In this document: positions 5,364 to 63,903 of the stretch, one piece after another
Layout of the letters: every line of letters starts with the position of its first letter
How positions within the stretch are numbered: position 1 is the first letter of the stretch
Assembly: GCA_041665165.1 (NCBI GenBank)
Contig: JBAYJJ010000001.1
Coordinates: 7,210-71,209, forward strand
DNA length: 64,000 nt
Direction of reading: 5' to 3'
DNA from: Patescibacteria group bacterium
GTDB lineage: Bacteria > Patescibacteriota > Patescibacteriia > 2-12-FULL-60-25
The notes under the pieces: model-generated
Database searches by the model: none
Told to the model about the DNA's origin: nothing
Seen by the model: only the letters and a program-made list of their open reading frames with translations
Position numbers and translations under genes: made by a program

Positions 5364-6656
5364 TTATCTGACCTTAAAAATATTGGTTATCGGTTCACCG
5401 ACCAGCTCTTTTTTGAGCGTGCCTTTTTCAAGCACTTGCTTCAGCTTGGGCAGGACTTTGGCATAAGCCCGGATGGTCGTATCCAGATCTTTCTGCGAAT
5501 GGCTGAAGCTCATGTTGTGCTGGCCATACCAAAGGATGCCTTCTTGCAAAATTTCCTGTTGCACATAGCTCTTTATCTCTAAGTCTGAAAAACCATTTGA
5601 CGGCGTAAAGAAAATAACTTGCCAGCATGGTTTGCCTTTTATTTTGATGACCGAGTCCAGGCCGTTCTTCTTGATGAGCGCATTCACTTTCTCCTTAAGA
5701 TATGTGCCTTTTTTCCAGATAGTCGGAATCACATTCTTTTTTTCCATTTCCTTGATGGTGGCAATGGCCGCAGCCAACGAAAGCGCCTCACCTCCATTGG
5801 TGAAAGAATAGAATATGTCTGCCACGCGCTTCATATATATCTTTTTTCCGACCAAGGCGGAGATAGGCATACCATTAGCCATGGATTTTCCGAAAGTCGC
5901 AAGGTCAGGCGTAATCCCGAAATATTTTTGGGCGCCGCCCAGGCCCCAGCGGAAACCGGTTATGACTTCGTCAAAAACCAGGAGCGCTCCGTTTTTATGC
6001 GCGATTTCCTTGACCTGCTTCAAAAAATCCTTGTCCGGCTCATAATAATTCATGGGTTCCATTATTACAGCCGCGATTTTCCCGTGATATTTCTTGAAAA
6101 GCTTTTTAAGCGAGGCAATGTCATTGTAGGCGAACGGGTGGGTCAATTTTTGGGTCGACACCGGAACGCCCAGTTTCCTGGTCGTGGATCCGATATACCA
6201 ATCGTGCCAGCCGTGATAACCGCAAGCAGCCACGTGTTCGCGGCCTGTGACTGCCCTGGCCACGCGAATCGCTCCGGAAGTGACATCGCTGCCGTTCTTT
6301 CCGTAGCGCACCATCTCAGCGCAAGGGATGTGCTTTATGAGAAGCTTGGCCAGCTCATCTTCCAAGGGCGAAGGCAATGGGAAAGCAATCCCCTTTTTAA
6401 GTTGTTTTTTTATGGCCTCGTCCACCGGCCCGTAGCAATGGCCCAAAATGACAGGCAAAAGCCCGTTGATGAAATCAATATACTCATTCCCATCCACATC
6501 CCAGACATGCGAGCCTTTGGCATGGGTCACGAACAACGGAGAGCCGCCTTTGACGTATTGCAGATAGCATTTACTGAAAGTCTGCGCAGCCAAAGGGATC
6601 CTCTCCTTGACAGAGCTGAACATCTTTTGGCTTTTGGCAAATGAACGTTTTTTCAT
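5364..6656 (-). CDS. Class III PLP aminotransferase (glutamate-1-semialdehyde aminomutase-like)
   Basis: The track ORF begins at a TTG at 6740 and overlaps the upstream gene. The first ATG at 6656 gives MKKRSFAKS.... Motifs GSHVWDVDGNEYIDF, EPMNYY, LVFDEVITGFR and FGKSMANG (the PLP lysine) are present. Confidence 0.8.
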   Translation of the reverse strand: MKKRSFAKSQKMFSSVKERIPLAAQTFSKCYLQYVKGGSPLFVTHAKGSHVWDVDGNEYIDFINGLLPVILGHCYGPVDEAIKKQLKKGIAFPLPSPLEDELAKLLIKHIPCAEMVRYGKNGSDVTSGAIRVARAVTGREHVAACGYHGWHDWYIGSTTRKLGVPVSTQKLTHPFAYNDIASLKKLFKKYHGKIAAVIMEPMNYYEPDKDFLKQVKEIAHKNGALLVFDEVITGFRWGLGGAQKYFGITPDLATFGKSMANGMPISALVGKKIYMKRVADIFYSFTNGGEALSLAAAIATIKEMEKKNVIPTIWKKGTYLKEKVNALIKKNGLDSVIKIKGKPCWQVIFFTPSNGFSDLEIKSYVQQEILQEGILWYGQHNMSFSHSQKDLDTTIRAYAKVLPKLKQVLEKGTLKKELVGEPITNIFKVR

Positions 6657-32913: not shown

Positions 32914-34101
32914 ATGGACCAAAAAGGCCTGACAATGATCCTGGTCACGAGCCAGGATTGGGGCGGCGTACAAGCCTATGTTTTGGATTTGGCTCTGGCT
33001 CTAAAGTCACGGGGTTTGCCGGTGATTGTTTGTGCAGGAAGACCCGAGAAGTTAGAAGTTAGAAGTTTGAAGTTAGACGTAGGACGAGAACTGGGCGATA
33101 AATGTCTAGAAGCAGGAATTGAGTTTATCGAGTTAAAAAGAATGATCCGTGACATTAACCCGATCTCAAATACGCGCGCTTTATTTGAATTGATCTCTTT
33201 GTTTAAAAAACATCAGCCGCATACAGTCCACTTGAACTCCAGCATGATGGGCGCAGTCGGATCTTTGGCAGCAAGAATCGCTGGTATTCAGCGCGTTGTA
33301 TATTGCATTGGCGGCTGGGCATTCAATGAGCAGATCTCCAGCTGGAAAAAAAGTCTTTACATAACAATCGAAAAAATCTCAGCGCGCTGGAAAGATGTGA
33401 TCATCTGCGTACACCCTGGCGATGAAAAACTGGCGTTGGACATAAAAATCAAACCGCGCGAAAAAGTCATGACCATCCCAAATGGCATTGACGTCAACTT
33501 ATTCCAATCTCAACTTCGTGATCGCGAAACCGCGCATTCGTTGTTAGCTGAACGATGTACGATGTACGATGTACGATGTACGGTTGTTGGCACGGTCGCC
33601 AATTCTTATCCACCGAAAAATCTTTTTTGGTATCTTGAAGTGTGCAAAACAATCACAGACAAGCACCCTGATTTCAAATTCGTGATTATCGGAGATGGCC
33701 CGCAGTTTGAAGAGTTGAAAGCCAAGCATGCGTCTCTGAATCTACAAGACAAGGTGATTCTGACAGGCCGCTTTGAATCAAAACTGCTTTACACGGCTTT
33801 TGATATTTCTGTCTTGCCTTCAACCAAAGAAGGCATGCCACTTGCAGTCTTAGAATCCATGGCTGCCAAAGTCCCCTGCGTCGTGACTGACGTCGGCGGG
33901 TGCAGATGGATGCTGCAGGACGAACAAGGCAGCGCTGGACTCGTGATCCCGCCAAACGACGACAAAGCCCTTGAGCAAGCTATCGAAAAACTTGCGTCAA
34001 ATTCCCTATTACGCCAAGAATTAAGCCAGCGCGCCTACAACCTAGTCACTGAGAAATTTAACTTGCAGGACACTCTGAACAAAACAATTGAAACACTGTG
34101 A
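32914..34101 (+). CDS. GT4 glycosyltransferase carrying two in-frame heptamer arrays
   Basis: 395 aa. MILVTSQDWGGVQAYV (an alternative start at 32935 is possible), then ...LPSTKEGMPLAVLESMAAKVPCVVTDVGG (EX7E). Two low-complexity inserts, KLEVRSLKLDVGRE and ERCTMYDVRCTVVG, are encoded by period-7 DNA. Confidence 0.8.
   Translation: MDQKGLTMILVTSQDWGGVQAYVLDLALALKSRGLPVIVCAGRPEKLEVRSLKLDVGRELGDKCLEAGIEFIELKRMIRDINPISNTRALFELISLFKKHQPHTVHLNSSMMGAVGSLAARIAGIQRVVYCIGGWAFNEQISSWKKSLYITIEKISARWKDVIICVHPGDEKLALDIKIKPREKVMTIPNGIDVNLFQSQLRDRETAHSLLAERCTMYDVRCTVVGTVANSYPPKNLFWYLEVCKTITDKHPDFKFVIIGDGPQFEELKAKHASLNLQDKVILTGRFESKLLYTAFDISVLPSTKEGMPLAVLESMAAKVPCVVTDVGGCRWMLQDEQGSAGLVIPPNDDKALEQAIEKLASNSLLRQELSQRAYNLVTEKFNLQDTLNKTIETL
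33048..33089. repeat. Heptamer array, 6 units (42 nt, in frame)
   Basis: GAAGTTA GAAGTTA GAAGTTT GAAGTTA GACGTAG GACGAGA. Confidence 0.8.
33552..33586. repeat. Heptamer array: (ACGATGT)x4 perfect plus one degenerate unit
   Basis: ACGATGT ACGATGT ACGATGT ACGATGT ACGGTTG, inside the GT4 coding frame. Confidence 0.85.
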
Positions 34102-42530: not shown

Positions 42531-42607
42531 TAAACGCTGAACGCACAACGCTAAACCCTAAACGCGTCGAAGCCTAAGGGTTAAGGGTTAAGCTTTAAGG
42601 GTTAAGC
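42531..42607. repeat. Heptamer array, 11 units in two sub-arrays, immediately upstream of the sigma gene
   Basis: TAAACGC TGAACGC ACAACGC TAAACCC TAAACGC GTCGAAG CCTAAGG GTTAAGG GTTAAGC TTTAAGG GTTAAGC. Confidence 0.8.
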
Positions 42608-42722: not shown

Positions 42723-42995
42723 ATGGAAAACTCGCCTATCCGTTTAAGTATTTCCCAGGCCGCACGCCTTTTTGGCATATCTGATCGCACTCTGCGCCGA
42801 GCAATCAGCTCTAACCAAATTAGATATGTAGTCGTGAAAAATCGATATCAACTTAACTTCGAATCCGTGCTGTCTTGGTCACAATCCAAACCCAAAGTTT
42901 TAAATAAACTTGAAAAGCAAGGCATAGGCCAATGGGTGGAGAAGTGGAAGATCAAAAATCCAAAATTCTCTCCTCGTCCGCCCCAAACCAACTGA
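42723..42995 (+). CDS. Small excisionase/MerR-type HTH DNA-binding protein
   Basis: 90 aa. LSISQAARLFGISDRTLRRAISSNQIRY is a helix-turn-helix, and the C-terminal tail is basic. Confidence 0.6.
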   Translation: MENSPIRLSISQAARLFGISDRTLRRAISSNQIRYVVVKNRYQLNFESVLSWSQSKPKVLNKLEKQGIGQWVEKWKIKNPKFSPRPPQTN

Positions 42996-43059
42996 CAACT
43001 CTAAACTTACAACTTACAAGAGCGTTCTGGTTACTCTTGTCAGTTGTACGTTGTCAGTT
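42990..43059. repeat. Inverted pair of heptamer arrays forming a long imperfect hairpin between convergent genes
   Basis: The left array is AACTGAC AACTCTA AACTTAC AACTTAC AAGAG and the right array is CTCTT GTCAGTT GTACGTT GTCAGTT. The reverse complement of the right array (AACTGAC AACGTAC AACTGAC) mirrors the left one. The left array includes the TGA at 42993-42995. Confidence 0.75.
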
Positions 43060-43071
43060 TTTGGTGTTTGA

Positions 43072-44289
43072 TCAAATAATTGACTTGTAGATTTTTTCGA
43101 GTTTATCGAGATGGTCATTCCAATTGAATTTTTTAACAAATTCTCCAGCCGCTTTTCCCATTGCGATCCTTTCGCCTTGATACATCCTTTCCATTTTTGA
43201 GATTGCAGCCACCCAAGATTCTACCTGGCCTGGTTCGGCCAAGAAGCCGGTCTTGCCATCCTCAACCATTTCTGGCAGGCCGCCGATTCTTGATGCAATC
43301 ACCGGCAGATTCATGCCCATGGCTTCGAGGACCGTGAGCGGCGCATTTTCATACCAGACCGACGGTATGAGCATGGCCTTTGCATTCACCCGAATGTTTT
43401 CCAGATCTTTGCCTGTTTTAAATCCCAAAAATTCTATGCACCCAGGCGCCAATCCGCGCGCCAAAGTCTCAAGCCTGATTTTTTCCGGGCCCGAACCTAT
43501 GATCTGAACTTTTATGTCTTTCAATAAAGCTGCGGCGCGAATTATTGTTTCAACGCCTTTTTCAGGGTACAGCCGGCCGACAAAAATATACGATCCATTC
43601 TCATTCCCCAGCGCTTTGACAGAATTTTCGTCAGCTGGATTCGGCACATACTGAAATTTGCCGGGTGGCTCGCCCCATTCAACCATCTTGTCCATCAAAA
43701 AGCGCGAAGGCGAAATAAACGTTGAGATTGTTTTTTCGTATGACTGAGAAACTTTAGTCATGCCCATTTCTAAAGCGCCCAAAATATTCGGCGCTATTCC
43801 GTTGAATAAGCATTGATGTGCGATCGCCTGATAATATTTCCCTCCCTTGCATCTTTCGCAAACTTGGCCTTGTGTGAACATCTTATAATTCGGACAAGCC
43901 AGCTTGTAATCATGCAAAGTCTGGACTGCTGGCACTTGCTTTTGCCTGATCACTTTAAGGATGCTGCTTGATAGATGGTGATAGATGTTGTGCAAATGAA
44001 CCACATCCGGCTTGACTTCATCGATCATCCTGGCAAGTTCGCGCGCCGCCTCGCTGTTCCATAAAAAGTTTTTAGCTTTTTTCGCATCTTTCGCCAGACC
44101 TTCGCGCTTGTCATAGGCATAGCGCGTAACGAAGTACTGGCTATCAAGGGATGGACGATTGCCTTCGCTCTTGGTGGAAAATATATGGACTTCATGCCCT
44201 CTGGCCTTTAATTTTTCCATCAAGGCAGGTATGTAAAACTCCGGCCCGCCGCGGTAATCAAAAAATTTATTTACTTGCAAGATTTTCAT
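43072..44289 (-). CDS. GT4 glycosyltransferase with a Cys-rich insertion
   Basis: 405 aa. MKILQVNKFFDYRGGPE, a CPNYK...CERCKGGKYYQAIAHQC insertion, and ...IPSVWYENAPLTVLEAMGMNLPVIASRIGGLPE (EX7E). Confidence 0.8.
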   Translation of the reverse strand: MKILQVNKFFDYRGGPEFYIPALMEKLKARGHEVHIFSTKSEGNRPSLDSQYFVTRYAYDKREGLAKDAKKAKNFLWNSEAARELARMIDEVKPDVVHLHNIYHHLSSSILKVIRQKQVPAVQTLHDYKLACPNYKMFTQGQVCERCKGGKYYQAIAHQCLFNGIAPNILGALEMGMTKVSQSYEKTISTFISPSRFLMDKMVEWGEPPGKFQYVPNPADENSVKALGNENGSYIFVGRLYPEKGVETIIRAAALLKDIKVQIIGSGPEKIRLETLARGLAPGCIEFLGFKTGKDLENIRVNAKAMLIPSVWYENAPLTVLEAMGMNLPVIASRIGGLPEMVEDGKTGFLAEPGQVESWVAAISKMERMYQGERIAMGKAAGEFVKKFNWNDHLDKLEKIYKSII

Positions 44290-46043: not shown

Positions 46044-46155
46044 CAATTAAAAATTCAAAATTGATAATTCAAAATTCAGGAGGCCTTTGGCTTTTATCTG
46101 GTAATCCGCGAAGCGGCACATGAACTTTGAATTTTGCATTTTTAATTTTGAATTA
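46044..46155. repeat. Inverted pair of AT-rich heptamer arrays flanking a 42-nt core
   Basis: The left array (46044-46078) is CAATTAA AAATTCA AAATTGA TAATTCA AAATTCA. The right array (46121-46155) is TGAACTT TGAATTT TGCATTT TTAATTT TGAATTA. TGAATTT is the exact reverse complement of AAATTCA. The right array covers the stop codon and last codons of the 46142 gene. Confidence 0.75.
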
Positions 46156-58317: not shown

Positions 58318-60420
58318 CTAGTACTGCACTTCAAACATTCTGTCTTCCAGCGTATCAATTCTATATTCGTAGGCGTTATCTCCCCACTTGGCTTCTGCTT
58401 CGGCTGGGTCTGCTTTTTTGACTGTTGTCGGTAAAATTATTTTGACATCAATCTGAGTGTTGTCTGCGCCCGGTTGCTTGGGCCAATCAAGACGATAGTC
58501 GCCGCTCGTAACGTCCAGCGGCGGAAGTTGATAGGTAAAAGATAATTGACCGCTTTTGCCTGGTTCTATGGCCCAAAAAGCACCGTAGACTGTTTTGCCC
58601 AGCTCTTTCATGACATCTACTTTGCCTGCGACGAAGTTGCCGCCCGTGTTATGCAAATCATCGGCCATGGCGCCTTTGGCTGAAACAAAGGTGCTGCCAT
58701 CAGGTACATAAATGCGTGTGTAACTGCGATAGCGCGTATATCTCCAAGTGGATTGCTTGTTTGTATTCTTATAATTGAATGTGACGGTCGCTACTGGCTT
58801 TTGCGGATCGCGCGCATCCAAAACATATGAGACTGACTTTTGCATTACGCCATCAGTCTTAAGCGCCGCGAGATTCGCATCCACCACCCACAAGAAATCA
58901 CCAAGCGTTGGCTTAGCGCGCCCGCTCCAGCCATATTGATCCAGTTTTTTCTCAACATCCGCATTGCGCGAGTAGATGAGAATCTGCTTGCGGTTCAATG
59001 ACGTGGTCACAAGATCCAATAGCTCTGGCCAGCGCGACTTGGGCATATTTTGGATTTTGGCCATTATGGCCTGACCCACTTCGCCCATAAGCACCTTCCT
59101 ATCTTCGACTGAAATGCCTTGCTTGCCAAAACCGATTTCTACCTGATACTGCAAAGTATCAAAAAAGTTCTGGTCATTATATTCCTGGCCGCGGACATTT
59201 ACCGGCCCGGTTATCTTGAGTAGGGCTTCAAAAAACGCCGGCTCAAAAGCAACATAAACCGTTGGCTCAGAAATCTTGTTTCCAGCCAAGATGTTTTCTC
59301 TGGTATAAAAATCCAATACTTTATCGGCTGAAGTCGGGAAATCCGGCGACCAATTCGCATCGCGCATAAACCAAACTTTTGCCTTGAGATAATCCTGCAA
59401 AGGTTTCGGCGGAATTTCTTTCCAAGTTTGCGCTACTGGATTATCAACTTGATACACATCTGAAAAAACCATGTTCGTCATGTCCCCGCCTGTAACCTTG
59501 GCCGTGAACAAACTTCCGATAAAACCGCCCGAAGGGCGAATCTCGTCCGCATTCTGCAAAGCCACAAGATAATCTTGAGCATCTGGATAGCCAGCCAAAG
59601 GCACCATGACGTCGATCAAAGGAACGGCCTGGGTCAATGATTTTTGCATCACTGGCAAAGCATCAGCCAGTGGTTTCAAAGCTTGCTTGATGGGACCGGC
59701 GATCTGATTTTGCGGCAAAGCATTCCACAACCTGTAGGCCAAATCCATTTTGTCCCTGGCAAGCCTGATGTCTGGCAATGAATTGTATAAAACCCGAAGC
59801 AAGCTTAGTTTATTTTCCGGAGTCAGATCTTTCAGCCTGTCGCTGGGCGAAATCGGCACGCCGAGGCTATTGACTGCCTGCTGGCCAGTTGAAGCTGCAT
59901 CAAAAATCGCTGAAGCGACCTTAAGCAAATCCTCCATGCCTTCCATTGAATCCGCACTCACGACCGAGGCATCCTGCAGAATGCGCAACTGCGACCCTAT
60001 ATATGGGACATCTCTCCAAAAGCCCATGCCATTCAAAGCGACCTCCATGTTATTGAGTTCAAGTTTTGCCTTGGCCGAATACGCTTGGGCAGTGGCCATG
60101 TCCCCGGCCAGCAAAGCTGTCTGCATGTTAGAAAGCGCGACTCGGGCATTGTTGGCTGCCAAGCCAGCTTTAGCCAAAGCTATTCCCGGAGGCACGGTTG
60201 CAATCCCCAGCGCTATCACTAAAAACGCGACCACTATCCAAAAAAGCTTACGCTTCTTCCGCGGATTCGTAGCTCGTAGCTCGTAGCTCGTAGCTCGGTC
60301 TTTGTTTGTCGGCTGTGGTCTGTCGTCTGTGGTCTTAGTGTCGCGAAAAGCGTCCGCTTTGTGTGGCGGTTCGAGCTCGGGCACTCCCGGGCAAGTTAAA
60401 AAATTTGGATGCTCTTTCAT
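58318..60420 (-). CDS. DUF4012-type membrane-anchored protein
   Basis: The ATG at 60420 overlaps the upstream TAA by 1 nt (TAATG); the track start at 60540 overlaps 120 nt. It has one TM segment (LFWIVVAFLVIALGIATV) and then ...AKAGLAANNARVALSNMQTALLAGDMATAQAY..., typical of DUF4012. The N-terminal tail is encoded by a heptamer array. Confidence 0.7.
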   Translation of the reverse strand: MKEHPNFLTCPGVPELEPPHKADAFRDTKTTDDRPQPTNKDRATSYELRATNPRKKRKLFWIVVAFLVIALGIATVPPGIALAKAGLAANNARVALSNMQTALLAGDMATAQAYSAKAKLELNNMEVALNGMGFWRDVPYIGSQLRILQDASVVSADSMEGMEDLLKVASAIFDAASTGQQAVNSLGVPISPSDRLKDLTPENKLSLLRVLYNSLPDIRLARDKMDLAYRLWNALPQNQIAGPIKQALKPLADALPVMQKSLTQAVPLIDVMVPLAGYPDAQDYLVALQNADEIRPSGGFIGSLFTAKVTGGDMTNMVFSDVYQVDNPVAQTWKEIPPKPLQDYLKAKVWFMRDANWSPDFPTSADKVLDFYTRENILAGNKISEPTVYVAFEPAFFEALLKITGPVNVRGQEYNDQNFFDTLQYQVEIGFGKQGISVEDRKVLMGEVGQAIMAKIQNMPKSRWPELLDLVTTSLNRKQILIYSRNADVEKKLDQYGWSGRAKPTLGDFLWVVDANLAALKTDGVMQKSVSYVLDARDPQKPVATVTFNYKNTNKQSTWRYTRYRSYTRIYVPDGSTFVSAKGAMADDLHNTGGNFVAGKVDVMKELGKTVYGAFWAIEPGKSGQLSFTYQLPPLDVTSGDYRLDWPKQPGADNTQIDVKIILPTTVKKADPAEAEAKWGDNAYEYRIDTLEDRMFEVQY
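60267..60336. repeat. Heptamer array, 10 units, inside the DUF4012 coding sequence
   Basis: TCGTAGC x4 (perfect), then TCGGTCT TTGTTTG TCGGCTG TGGTCTG TCGTCTG TGGTCTT. On the coding strand the first block is (AGCTACG)n, the same unit as at 34138. It encodes ...TTDDRPQPTNKDRATSYELRATN.... Confidence 0.85.
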
Positions 60421-61298: not shown

Positions 61299-62356
61299 AC
61301 GAACCAAGGCCGGATTTTCTGCGCCCCCTCAGTGCAGATAGCCTTTAATTCTTTGCGCTTTTTCAGCATTTTTGGCAAACCGGCCAAAGCCGCTCCATAA
61401 CCCTTGAGCGATGACCATGAAAACAGCGCGGCAAGCATCTTACCTATTTCATACGGTAAAATCCAGAGCCCGTGCCATAAAAGGTCAGAAAAAGCCAGGT
61501 TCTTAGCCAAAACCCAGATATGATTGCGGCTCGAAAGATAGGTTACAAAAGCAGGATGCCCAAATCGCTTGAGCCAGACCGTAAAAACATTGGATCTTGG
61601 GCTGGAAGGCACACGGCGGTAGTGCCAGGCTACGGCCTTGGGCACTAAAGCTGATTTCATGCCCATGCGGCGCATGCGCCAAGCCACATCCACGTCTTCT
61701 TTATATGAATGGAAATCTTCATCAAAAAATTGACCATTGAGGCTGGAGCGCACCAAAGCTGAAGCGCGATAAAAAGCACAAGCGCCGGTCGGACCGAAAA
61801 TTTCCATTTCCTTGTCATACTGGCCCTCGTCGATTTGACCGGCTTTATCATCATAAGCGCGGCGCGCTTTTGTCATGTGTATGCCCAGCGAATCAATCAC
61901 ATTTGTTTTCTCTGTTTCTGCCCTGTCGCCAATGCCTGGACGCAAATGCGCCTTCAGAAGTTTTGGCATGGCGCTATCTATTTCCAAGTGGCTGTCCATG
62001 AAGCTGACCAATTCAAATATACAGTTTTGGTCCAGCACGATATCCGGATTGCATATCAAGATATAAGCGCGCGACAGATCTGAATCCTGCAGGCCTGAGA
62101 GAGCGAGTTGGATGGCCTGATTGTGAGCGCGCGTAAAACCATAGTTGCGCATGTTGCGCAAAACAGTCATACCCGGATATTCACTGGTCAGCCACTGCGC
62201 CACCCCATCAGTTGAGGCATTGTCCACCAAAATTATTCTATGCTGTTCGTTTTGGGCTTCAAGGCTTTCAAACAAGGATGGTAAATAAGCCATGGAGTTC
62301 CAGGCTACGATATTCACGGAAAGTCTTAGCTGATCCATATCTATTTCATGTAACAT
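61295..62356 (-). CDS. GT2 glycosyltransferase (rhamnosyltransferase-like)
   Basis: 353 aa. LSVNIVAWNS...IILVDNASTDG...NYGFTRAHNQ...ILICNPD. Confidence 0.8.
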   Translation of the reverse strand: MLHEIDMDQLRLSVNIVAWNSMAYLPSLFESLEAQNEQHRIILVDNASTDGVAQWLTSEYPGMTVLRNMRNYGFTRAHNQAIQLALSGLQDSDLSRAYILICNPDIVLDQNCIFELVSFMDSHLEIDSAMPKLLKAHLRPGIGDRAETEKTNVIDSLGIHMTKARRAYDDKAGQIDEGQYDKEMEIFGPTGACAFYRASALVRSSLNGQFFDEDFHSYKEDVDVAWRMRRMGMKSALVPKAVAWHYRRVPSSPRSNVFTVWLKRFGHPAFVTYLSSRNHIWVLAKNLAFSDLLWHGLWILPYEIGKMLAALFSWSSLKGYGAALAGLPKMLKKRKELKAICTEGAQKIRPWFV

Positions 62357-62410
62357 GTATCATATAACATATATCATCCGTCATGTTACATGTTGCGTGT
62401 TACATGTTTC
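62348..62410. repeat. Heptamer array, 9 units, spanning a gene junction
   Basis: ATGTAAC ATGTATC ATATAAC ATATATC ATCCGTC ATGTTAC ATGTTGC GTGTTAC ATGTTTC. It covers the start codon of the 61295-62356 gene, the 29-nt spacer, and the stop and last codons of the 62386-63903 gene. Confidence 0.8.
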
Positions 62411-63903
62411 GTGGATTCTTGTACGCGTTTAGGCGAAACATTAAAACCAAGCCGGCCAACACCTAGCATCATTCTGGTTTGGGCATCAATGGCCGGGAAC
62501 GCCCCGAAAATCACGAACGTCACAGGCAAAAGAAGCCACTGCAAGAATACGACTATCGGAGTCTGCCATTTAGAAACATGTTCTGGCCTGGGCGGTAGCA
62601 AAACCGCGGACAAGATAGCTGATGCGAACAAGCCAATCATGGCAAAACGCATAAGCCATTCCAAAGTAAACGGCGTGTTCTGAAAAATCGCATACGAACG
62701 GAAAGGCTCAGGTGCAAACCAAAACGGCAATCTGCCCAATAAAAAGATGAGCAAAGGCACAGTGGCCCAGGTATACATGCCCTCAACTTGCTTGAACATG
62801 AACCTGATTTTGACCATGAAAGGCATGGCCTTATCGCGCGAAAACTCCTGCGCCATGTAGGGAAAGTTTTCTACGCCCCAGGCCCAGCGCCGCATCTGCA
62901 GATACAGAGCTGTGAGAGCTTTTATATAAGATCCAGACATGACTGTGTCCATGGAAACTGGGAGATAAATAGGTGTGACGCGATAGTGGCCGTGGTACTT
63001 AATCAAACCTTTTAGAAAAATCCTGGAATCTTCATTCACCATATCATATGGATGAAAATCCACGTCCACCAGCATGCGCAAAGTCATGCTATGCGAAGAA
63101 AATGTCATCATGCCCTCGGACCTGGCCAACTCAGTCATGAGCCAAAATGTTGTACCGAACATGCAGACGCGCACCACGGCCGGTGATTCCCACAGATTGT
63201 TGTTATACAAAACAACCGGCTGGTAAGAGCTCCTATGCGGCTCAGGTATGGTCAAAAACTTATACGATACACAGGCCAAGTATTGAGGATGAGCCACTGT
63301 GTCAATATCAAAAGCCGAAACAATCACATCATCGATTTCAATGCCCATGCTCTTTATTTTTTCCAGCGCGGCCTGCTCCATCCAACGCATATTTGAACCT
63401 TTGCCCGGAATCTCCCCTGGCAGATCCTTAGGATGTACAGATGTGAGCAGAGCGGCAAATTTACCCCCGTATTCATTTACGATTGCTTTTGATTTTTCTT
63501 CAAAGCTTTCTTTGGCCCGTTCTTCGCCTCCCAACATCACAATCATCCTGTCTTTGGGATAGGTGGATTTAAGCAGCGAGTCCATGCAATCGCGAATTAC
63601 GATCAAATCTTCTTTGACCGTCGGAAGCATTATCAGATGATAGACTTTATCAAACCTGGGCAAAGCGCTGGCGTCTTTCAGCCAGTTACGCTTTGAGTCG
63701 CGACGGTAAGAATACCAGGCAACGACCACAAACGGCAGGTAGTAGATAACGCGGAACAGCCAATACAGATCGTACACGATCACGAAGTACACGATCCAAA
63801 GCGGCTGAAGAAAAGACAAAACCACCATGCCGATGATAGTAATCCAGACAAGAGCGCCTGGAATGATTTCGAAAAATCTTTTTTCCAATCTTGCTTTGTC
63901 CAT
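62386..63903 (-). CDS. Membrane-embedded processive-type GT2 synthase (cellulose/chitin-synthase-like)
   Basis: 505 aa. It has N- and C-terminal TM bundles around a cytoplasmic GT2 domain (VYHLIMLPTVKE...SAFDIDT...) and the QxxRW-type motif LQMRRWAWG. Confidence 0.7.
   Translation of the reverse strand: MDKARLEKRFFEIIPGALVWITIIGMVVLSFLQPLWIVYFVIVYDLYWLFRVIYYLPFVVVAWYSYRRDSKRNWLKDASALPRFDKVYHLIMLPTVKEDLIVIRDCMDSLLKSTYPKDRMIVMLGGEERAKESFEEKSKAIVNEYGGKFAALLTSVHPKDLPGEIPGKGSNMRWMEQAALEKIKSMGIEIDDVIVSAFDIDTVAHPQYLACVSYKFLTIPEPHRSSYQPVVLYNNNLWESPAVVRVCMFGTTFWLMTELARSEGMMTFSSHSMTLRMLVDVDFHPYDMVNEDSRIFLKGLIKYHGHYRVTPIYLPVSMDTVMSGSYIKALTALYLQMRRWAWGVENFPYMAQEFSRDKAMPFMVKIRFMFKQVEGMYTWATVPLLIFLLGRLPFWFAPEPFRSYAIFQNTPFTLEWLMRFAMIGLFASAILSAVLLPPRPEHVSKWQTPIVVFLQWLLLPVTFVIFGAFPAIDAQTRMMLGVGRLGFNVSPKRVQESTKHVTRNM

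Follow-up and report, generated by a model that had tools for sequence, protein, structure and literature searches.

Between two convergent genes of a groundwater Patescibacteria genome stands a hairpin of about 70 nt whose arms are runs of tandem heptamers. The question that this locus raises is whether such a structure was built in place, as a terminator or by inverted duplication of a local array, or whether it arrived from elsewhere as a mobile element. Coordinates are given as positions in the window, the whole 64,000-nt stretch of DNA that was analysed. The source genome (G000) is a 1.18-Mb draft assembly of 58 contigs with 48.6% G+C, for which the ORF-based gene calls are crude; related genomes (G001 and so on) are draft MAGs, and contigs of G000 are designated C17 and the like.

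Sequence and fold of the hairpin

On the plus strand, the left arm consists of four heptamers (AACTGAC, AACTCTA, AACTTAC and AACTTAC; 42990..43017), which TRF scores as 4.4 copies of period 7. These are followed by AAGAG, an 11-nt loop (CGTTCTGGTTA; 43023-43033), CTCTT and a right arm of three heptamers (GTCAGTT, GTACGTT and GTCAGTT; 43039..43059) that complements the left arm except at one variable position of the units. TTT and GG come next, and a run of five T lies directly 3′ of the stem (43058..43062). The inner stem, ACAAGAG and CTCTTGT on either side of the loop, forms with it a core of 25 nt (43016..43040). This arrangement, with four AACTNAC and three GTNNGTT units around AAGAG, an 11-nt loop and CTCTT, is exactly that given for 42990-43059 by the sequence-only reading that preceded our analysis.

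That reading had also placed the start of the hairpin within the end of a gene, and it was correct in doing so. An ORF for an HTH_17-type protein of 90 aa occupies 42723..42995 on the plus strand, so its stop codon TGA (42993-42995) sits in the first heptamer, which supplies the last codon (AAC) as well. On the other side, beyond some extra bases (GGTGTTTGA; 43063..43071) that separate the hairpin element from the stop codon of the next gene, an ORF on the minus strand (43072..44289) encodes a GT4-family glycosyltransferase of 405 aa. Because the two ORFs are on opposite strands, the HTH and GT4 genes are convergent.

The sequence folds far better than shuffled controls with both RNA and DNA parameters (z about −4.6). 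The plus-strand RNA reaches −31.1 kcal/mol, compared with −17.3 ± 3.0 kcal/mol for shuffles (z −4.55; 0 of 200 shuffles as good), the minus-strand RNA reaches −33.1 kcal/mol (z −4.60) and the DNA-parameter fold −18.0 kcal/mol (z −4.60), again with no shuffle as good in either case. About 24 pairs make up the stem, which contains one 8-nt bulge, where the four units of the left arm face three on the right, and two single mismatches that fall on the variable seventh position of the units. The arms had been described as mirror images, but they are not exact ones: the seventh position varies freely and is unpaired as often as expected by chance. A scan of the window against Rfam at the gathering threshold gave no matches, and the hairpin is therefore not a described RNA family.

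In position and shape the hairpin resembles a terminator, as was recognized earlier: two convergent genes have their 3′ ends here, and TTTTT comes after the stem on the plus strand. It might accordingly be an ordinary intrinsic terminator that evolved in place and whose stem was lengthened by 7-nt slippage, within a genome-wide tendency to heptamer simple-sequence repeats of the Mrazek 2007 type. Heptamer arrays are indeed about 15-fold over-represented in G000, perfect arrays exist, and the two arms differ by one unit (four versus three). However, a consensus terminator scan does not call the hairpin, and the copies found elsewhere in the genome weigh against such an origin.

Family A is a dispersed repeat

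The core pattern matches the window once, compared with 0.02 matches expected. Sequence comparison identifies the hairpin as a member of a dispersed family, family A, that has about 22-25 near-identical copies in G000, and not as a local inverted duplication. The family is built of three to four AACTNAC units, ACAAGAGT, a loop of about 9 nt, ACTCTTGT and three to four GTNAGTT units; in phase, the stem can be read throughout as repeated ACAANNN units. Clean copies with an 11-nt loop number 23, and about 25 loci are found by a covariance model derived from an alignment of 19 copies (mean column identity 82%). Intact copies have 3.1-3.2 units per arm on average, with a range of 2-4.

The 25-nt core, ACAAGAGT-loop-ACTCTTGT, is present in all copies. 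This is not expected if an array is duplicated locally in inverted orientation, and the earlier proposal to that effect fails on this point. The same finding already largely refutes a terminator lengthened by slippage, since the core and the arm sequence are common to about 25 dispersed loci. Furthermore, arm length is fixed tightly at 3-4 units, unlike the product of open-ended slippage, the same ends flank a PF05635 gene, and the site is empty in a relative with a 93%-identical HTH protein (see below). We consider evolution in place quite improbable.

The family A loop is asymmetric, reading either TAACCTRGNCA or its complement, and the reverse complement of the loop at the present locus (TAACCAGAACG) agrees with this consensus. 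Because the loop occurs in either sense, family A copies have been inserted in both orientations; relative to the flanking genes, their loops show no orientation bias. Eight of the 23 copies lie between convergent genes, an arrangement that accounts for 17% of all gene junctions. Between same-strand genes, 10 of 12 copies touch or overlap the upstream stop codon, and only two copies lie between divergent genes. A T-run accompanies about one third of the copies, not always on the transcribed side.

Across 145 family A units, conservation is about 95% at six of the seven positions, and the remaining one, the seventh, varies freely (C 53, A 47, T 28, G 17). In the innermost unit this seventh position is paired across the stem in 5 of 19 copies, which is the chance level. 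Compensatory changes were sought in 22 stem pairs and found in none, so covariation is unable to support the family A structure. The conservation of the arms could reflect sequence recognition instead of pairing.

With the covariance model, about 37 family A loci are found in G002, 33 in G018, 28 in G013, 17 in G021 and 15 in G020, all of the same genus. None is found in seven sister species, and none in 19 genomes of other genera except for two marginal matches. Within G000, three copies have nested or replaced parts (C12 24123-24226, C36 5188-5281 and C21 10712-10835): one carries two small GC hairpins between inner stem and arm, one has a loop that is 32 nt larger, and in another a GC hairpin replaces one arm.

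A coding cassette with the same ends

A full family A cassette occupies positions 5434-5877 of contig C17. It reads AACTAAC AACTGAC AACTTAC AAGAGT, GAAATAGTAAT, a reading frame of 120 codons from ATG to ACC AGG TGA, then CTTGATA, ACTCTTGT and CAGTTGT CAGTTTT TAGTTGT. The arms are inverted arrays of three to four heptamers (ACAACTN/NAGTTGT) that span 27 nt, the inner stem is ACAAGAGT/ACTCTTGT, and both are the same in type as those of the short copies. The ORF (5472-5831) encodes a 120-aa protein of PF05635 (113.8 bits), and the sequence at its 3′ end (CACCAGGTGA) is similar to the consensus for the short-copy loops. No recognizable transposase is found in this element, which encodes the PF05635 four-helix-bundle protein only.

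In G013 and G002, the orthologues of the C17 protein (74% and 68% identical, respectively) are flanked by the same arms and inner stem. The gene upstream is also the same one, with a C-terminus that reads ...GARF[VI]KPK..., and the C17 master locus is thus orthologous and inherited vertically. G013 further encodes a 60% paralogue whose arms are diverged but related (GAAACTN/NAGTTTC, with GAAAGAGT/ACTCTTTC). Among the genomes searched, those that lack family A hairpins have a best match to the C17 protein of at most 49% identity.

The genome contains 10 PF05635 genes, all above the Pfam cut-off, and eight of them have inverted heptamer arms on both sides. PF05635 genes with such arms also occur in G024, G022, G004 and G015, which include two other genera of the same family. 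The arm units of the other G000 cassettes are AATTCAA (family B), AAACACC/AAGAAAC (C), CGTACNN (D), CATGTAA (E), AGGAAGT and AAGATAA. Three cassettes, with arms of families B, D and E, stand head to tail within 2.2 kb on contig C13 (12044-14230), which carries two further PF05635 genes.

PF05635 genes without heptamer arms are found at C19 20244-20558 and C2 19575-19889. They have a distinct N-terminus in common, and the C19 copy is flanked by an 18-nt non-heptamer inverted repeat (CAAAAAACGGGCGCGCAA). PF05635 is homologous to the Avd protein of diversity-generating retroelements (PMC10053308), and these arm-less genes may form a different subfamily, for example true Avd genes. The sole reverse transcriptase of G000 is encoded on another contig (C14:8141-8728). 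Copying linked to a reverse transcriptase was considered and rejected: the distribution of PF00078 (RVT_1) across 41 genomes does not follow the arrays, the domain being absent from array-rich G007, G018, G021 and G037 and present in array-free G005, G028 and G033, which leaves this route unsupported.

Filled and empty sites at the HTH/GT4 junction

The HTH gene is present once and is conserved throughout the genus. In the MAG L071, which encodes an HTH protein of 93% identity and closely matches the flanks in nucleotide sequence, the junction is empty (...CAAACC GAA TAA T CTA TAG AAT...). The HTH and GT4 stop codons are 1 nt apart there, compared with 82 nt in G000 (42990-43071). The net gain in G000 is about 75 nt, and the insertion has remodelled the 3′ end of the HTH gene; relative to L071, the last codons of both genes are slightly altered. 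The GGTGTTTGA bases beyond the hairpin are likewise missing from the empty site. L071, L075 and other public MAG records of this genus are titled ‘uncultured Gammaproteobacteria bacterium’, an apparent labelling error.

The junction is also empty in six other species of the genus (G008, G009, G013, G002, G010 and G005), and in G013 and G002 this is so despite many family A copies elsewhere. Three further relatives have a different structure at the same place: a family C-like heptamer hairpin in G004 (AACCAAA.../TTGGTGT...), a third type of heptamer hairpin in G012 (AAACAGC/GCTGTTT) and a conventional G+C-rich terminator in G003. In G000 itself, GGTGTTT (43063-43069) is an arm unit of cassette family C. 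Together with the heptamer hairpins of G004 and G012, this unit indicates repeated hits at this site. Comparison of the filled G000 and empty L071 junctions revealed no target-site duplication. These alignments identify the hairpin as a recent insertion in the lineage of this species.

Origin of the hairpin

The hairpin is probably a gene-less derivative, about 70 nt long, of the family A PF05635 cassette that was inserted between the HTH and GT4 genes. The arms and inner stem of the cassette are preserved in this short form and the ORF is lost, which makes it a MITE-like counterpart. It would have entered a 1-nt gap between the two genes in this species' lineage, and the HTH stop codon now lies within it.

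Interpretation of the locus as an array duplicated in a MITE-like manner, as first put forward, is thus partly supported, and the MITE-like part of it is largely right. In its favour are the arms and inner stem shared with a coding element, the roughly 22-25 copies and the empty site in close relatives. As with MITEs, a short copy and a longer coding element share termini in one genome, copy number is high, presence and absence are polymorphic among related genomes, and copies favour gene ends. In contrast with MITEs, the family A coding element has no recognizable transposase, no target-site duplication was seen, and the termini are tandem arrays of variable unit number, not fixed terminal inverted repeats. 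The hairpin therefore has the structural characters of a MITE except for the transposase and the target duplication.

A transposase acting in trans would offer another route, in which the hairpin is a REP/REPIN-like palindrome moved by a RAYT (an IS200/IS605-type Y1 transposase). The hairpin is a short, dispersed, imperfect palindrome at gene ends, and some genomes of the genus encode Y1 transposases; REP and BIME elements are likewise extragenic palindromes at gene 3′ ends, able to stabilize upstream mRNA. However, their architecture is unlike that of family A: REP elements have no heptamer arrays and do not form the arms of a PF05635 gene. Moreover, G000 has no RAYT. A search for PF01797 in G000 and G013 gave no match, although each carries 25-28 family A copies, and the model was dropped on this result; G001 has Y1 transposases but no family A copies. 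Mobilization of this kind is very improbable.

Heptamer arrays in the genome and its relatives

The hairpin was said to be assembled from the same period-7 material as other arrays, and this holds. For G000, TRF returns 399 period-7 rows and 84 period-14 rows, compared with 13-36 and 3-4, respectively, in three genomes simulated with a third-order Markov model. Merging gives 326 arrays of at least 21 nt, with 49% of their bases in the 10% of the genome that lies outside ORFs, and heptamer arrays make up about 4% of intergenic DNA. With tandem 7-nt units at many loci, above chance, G000 belongs among genomes with heptanucleotide long simple-sequence repeats (STRR-like).

A reverse-complement partner within 120 nt was found for 119 arrays, a threshold that random controls pass at a rate of 0.5%. 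These partnered arrays resolve into 75 hairpin loci of inverted period-7 arrays, and the objection that the genome might hold no other inverted pairs is thereby removed. Resident cassettes match most of them: 57 of the 75 gene-less hairpins correspond to five cassettes (A 22, B 14, C 8, E 7 and D 6). Likewise, the consensus unit is exactly a resident arm unit in 156 of 304 arrays, compared with 3.7% for random heptamers.

For a comparison across genomes, period-7 arrays of at least three units were counted in 20-kb samples (one of 10 kb) from 14 related genomes. Arrays are present in all eight PF05635-positive samples (G002 8, G007 4, G004 5, G036 7, G019 14, G021 11, G037 9 and G001 4) and in none of the six PF05635-free ones (G023, G008, G005, G028, G040 and G033, 0 each), although G008 and G005 are of the same genus as G000. 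Because the samples are small and the genomes related, this association is suggestive and no proof, and the same correlation would arise were the arrays merely cassette debris.

The regularity of the units permits a different view, namely that a trans-acting protein with a footprint of about 7 nt, for example the PF05635 pentamer or a cold-shock-domain protein, binds the arrays, and that the hairpin is a regulated element, for instance in protein-controlled termination or antitermination or in processing, and not merely selfish DNA. Cold-shock domains bind about 6-7 nt of single strand. Six unit positions conserved at about 95%, with a seventh that is free and pairs at chance, would suit this view, as would the co-divergence of arm sequence with the PF05635 protein and the restriction of arrays to PF05635-positive genomes among the 14 sampled. 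Binding by S1, Csp or CsrA has also been proposed for TAACTGA heptamer repeats (MacGregor, 2015; PMC4679880). However, the candidate sites are read from sequence, and co-divergence also follows from co-inheritance of one cassette. In addition, insertions in both orientations, at unrelated genes and inside ORFs look selfish rather than regulatory. We judge a regulatory binding array to be unlikely.

Predicted processing of the transcripts

In either transcript, the arms would pair to form a stem of about 24 bp that is interrupted by a mismatch at each seventh base. The S23p-bearing intervening sequences of rRNA suggest by analogy that RNase III, whose gene is present on contig C28 of G000, would cut this stem. 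In the plus-strand transcript, the stem and the five U would end or stabilize the HTH mRNA. The hairpin is thus likely to serve as an RNase III-cut stem, as a terminator or as both, to judge from these parallels. Where an intrinsic terminator has a G+C-rich stem, a short loop and a U-tract directly after the stem, the hairpin has an AT-rich stem, an 11-nt loop and five T on the plus strand only; on the minus strand no equivalent T-run follows the stem (GGTTTGGGG). Because the terminator scan makes no call and T-runs are inconsistent among copies, we infer that processing or stabilization ranks above classical termination.

Relation to rRNA intervening sequences

PF05635 is the ‘23S rRNA intervening-sequence protein’ (S23p), named for the ORF in large intervening sequences (IVS) of 23S rRNA. 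Such IVS occupy helix 25 or 45 of the 23S rRNA, for example in Coxiella burnetii (helix 45) and Leptospira. We know of no nuclease or transposase activity of PF05635. S23p forms a pentameric four-helix bundle of unknown function (PMC4990558). [quoted passage not shown] On its 5′ side are two to three strain-variable tandem heptamers, GACAGAT, and RNase III cuts at the first repeat (PMC4990558).

The full family A cassette resembles these IVS in its complementary termini, with a long stem around a PF05635 gene of about 120 aa. The stem region consists of tandem heptamers in both cases (GACAGAT x2-3 in Coxiella), short ORF-less IVS exist in rRNA too, and the IVS-excising enzyme, RNase III, is encoded in G000. 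The differences are equally clear. The present hairpin and all ten G000 cassettes lie between or inside protein-coding genes, in a draft assembly in which a search found no LSU (23S) rRNA. Many families coexist in one genome, each with dozens of ORF-less copies, and the arrays are longer, with 3-4 units on both arms; RNase III excision would apply here by analogy. The hairpin, with its 11-nt loop, has no ORF and lies outside rRNA, between the HTH and GT4 genes. It is therefore not a classical IVS, although it has the long complementary stem of one.

Relation to other repeats

In cyanobacteria, heptanucleotide repeats called STRR reportedly occur with small dispersed repeats, as Mazel in 1990 and Elhai in 2008 are said to have described. 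To our knowledge, no link to PF05635 cassettes has been reported for STRR or TAACTGA repeats. The latter occur in Beggiatoaceae, Cyanobacteria and Bacteroidetes, with no mechanism given (MacGregor, 2015; PMC4679880). In several phyla, no class of long simple-sequence repeat is commoner than the heptanucleotide one. The arrays of G000 are similar to both in being few-unit tandem heptamers that are spread genome-wide, mostly intergenic, near start or stop codons and of several unit families per genome; the hairpin unit AACTGAC is one position off TAACTGA. They differ from both in that the phyla are others and in that the arrays here are the arms of PF05635 cassettes and their derivatives.

Rickettsia palindromic elements of 100-150 bp, attributed to work by Ogata in 2000, are said to be tolerated inside genes and translated. 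The HTH gene, to which the hairpin gives its last codon and stop, and the TsaD gene, with three arrays as loop insertions, are comparable cases. However, the Rickettsia elements are 100-150 bp long, are not built of heptamers and have no ORF-bearing master. The TsaD (tRNA t6A) gene of G000 (C2 33198-34319) has its three heptamer arrays, (AATTCAA)x4.7, (AGCGAAA)x4.6 and (CAACGTA)x3.9, translated in frame, the last with an inverted partner. In an alignment with Thermotoga TsaD (6n9a_D), the arrays fall at additional loops of 5, 8 and 17 residues.

As the sole element-encoded product, the PF05635 protein is the only candidate partner for the spread of the copies. We raise, tentatively and as a possibility that we ourselves find somewhat doubtful, the idea that PF05635 cassettes are a distinct kind of transposase-less mobile element. 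The pentameric protein would recognize its own heptamer arrays, as ssDNA or RNA, and promote copying into hairpin-prone sites such as gene ends, protein loops and rRNA helices, which would yield both the rRNA IVS and the heptanucleotide repeats of bacteria (STRR and TAACTGA). Full-text literature searches returned no paper on PF05635 cassettes with heptamer arms outside rRNA, or on their gene-less derivatives, in Patescibacteria.

Two puzzles go back to about 1990, one being the intervening sequences of rRNA with their S23p gene and the other the abundance of heptanucleotide repeats in some bacteria. In G000 the two are one object, as the arrays are the arms of PF05635 cassettes and gene-less derivatives. 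A 120-aa protein and a 70-nt hairpin make a testable candidate for mobility or processing without a known transposase. PF05635 cassettes account for a good part of the intergenic DNA in the ultra-small genomes of Patescibacteria, and heptamer repeats explain some differences in protein length. Annotation of such genomes should allow for this, since stop codons, spacers and protein loops are often repeat-derived.

Further observations on the arrays

The lengths of period-7 arrays in G000 peak at 31-32 nt (100 of 399 rows, for example 33552-33582 and 60267-60297 of the window), and the longest perfect array is at most 33 nt (4.7 units). Near-complete relatives exceed this ceiling, with perfect arrays of up to 47 nt and imperfect ones that reach about 90 nt; examples are a perfect array in G002 (6.7 units) and an imperfect array in G019 (12.9 units). 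The ceiling of 31-33 nt in G000 is either a real size limit or an assembly effect. Of 30 perfect arrays in this genome, 25 lie inside long ORFs.

Other arrays occur in the window. In the divergent spacer between an ECF sigma gene and the HTH gene (42531-42607) are two partly complementary sub-arrays, one TAAACGC-like and the other of TAAGGGT, whose units match none of the ten resident cassettes. A gene-less family B hairpin (46045-46154) with AATTCAA arms and a 45-nt core containing two small GC hairpins separates two minus-strand glycosyltransferase genes, and a gene-less family E hairpin with CATGTAA arms (62347-62413) extends across a stop codon, a spacer and a start codon. In a relative, locus L035 (G002:C4:100001-120000) carries period-9 arrays in inverted pairs (AGTCCATAA / TTAAGGACT) beside heptamer arrays.
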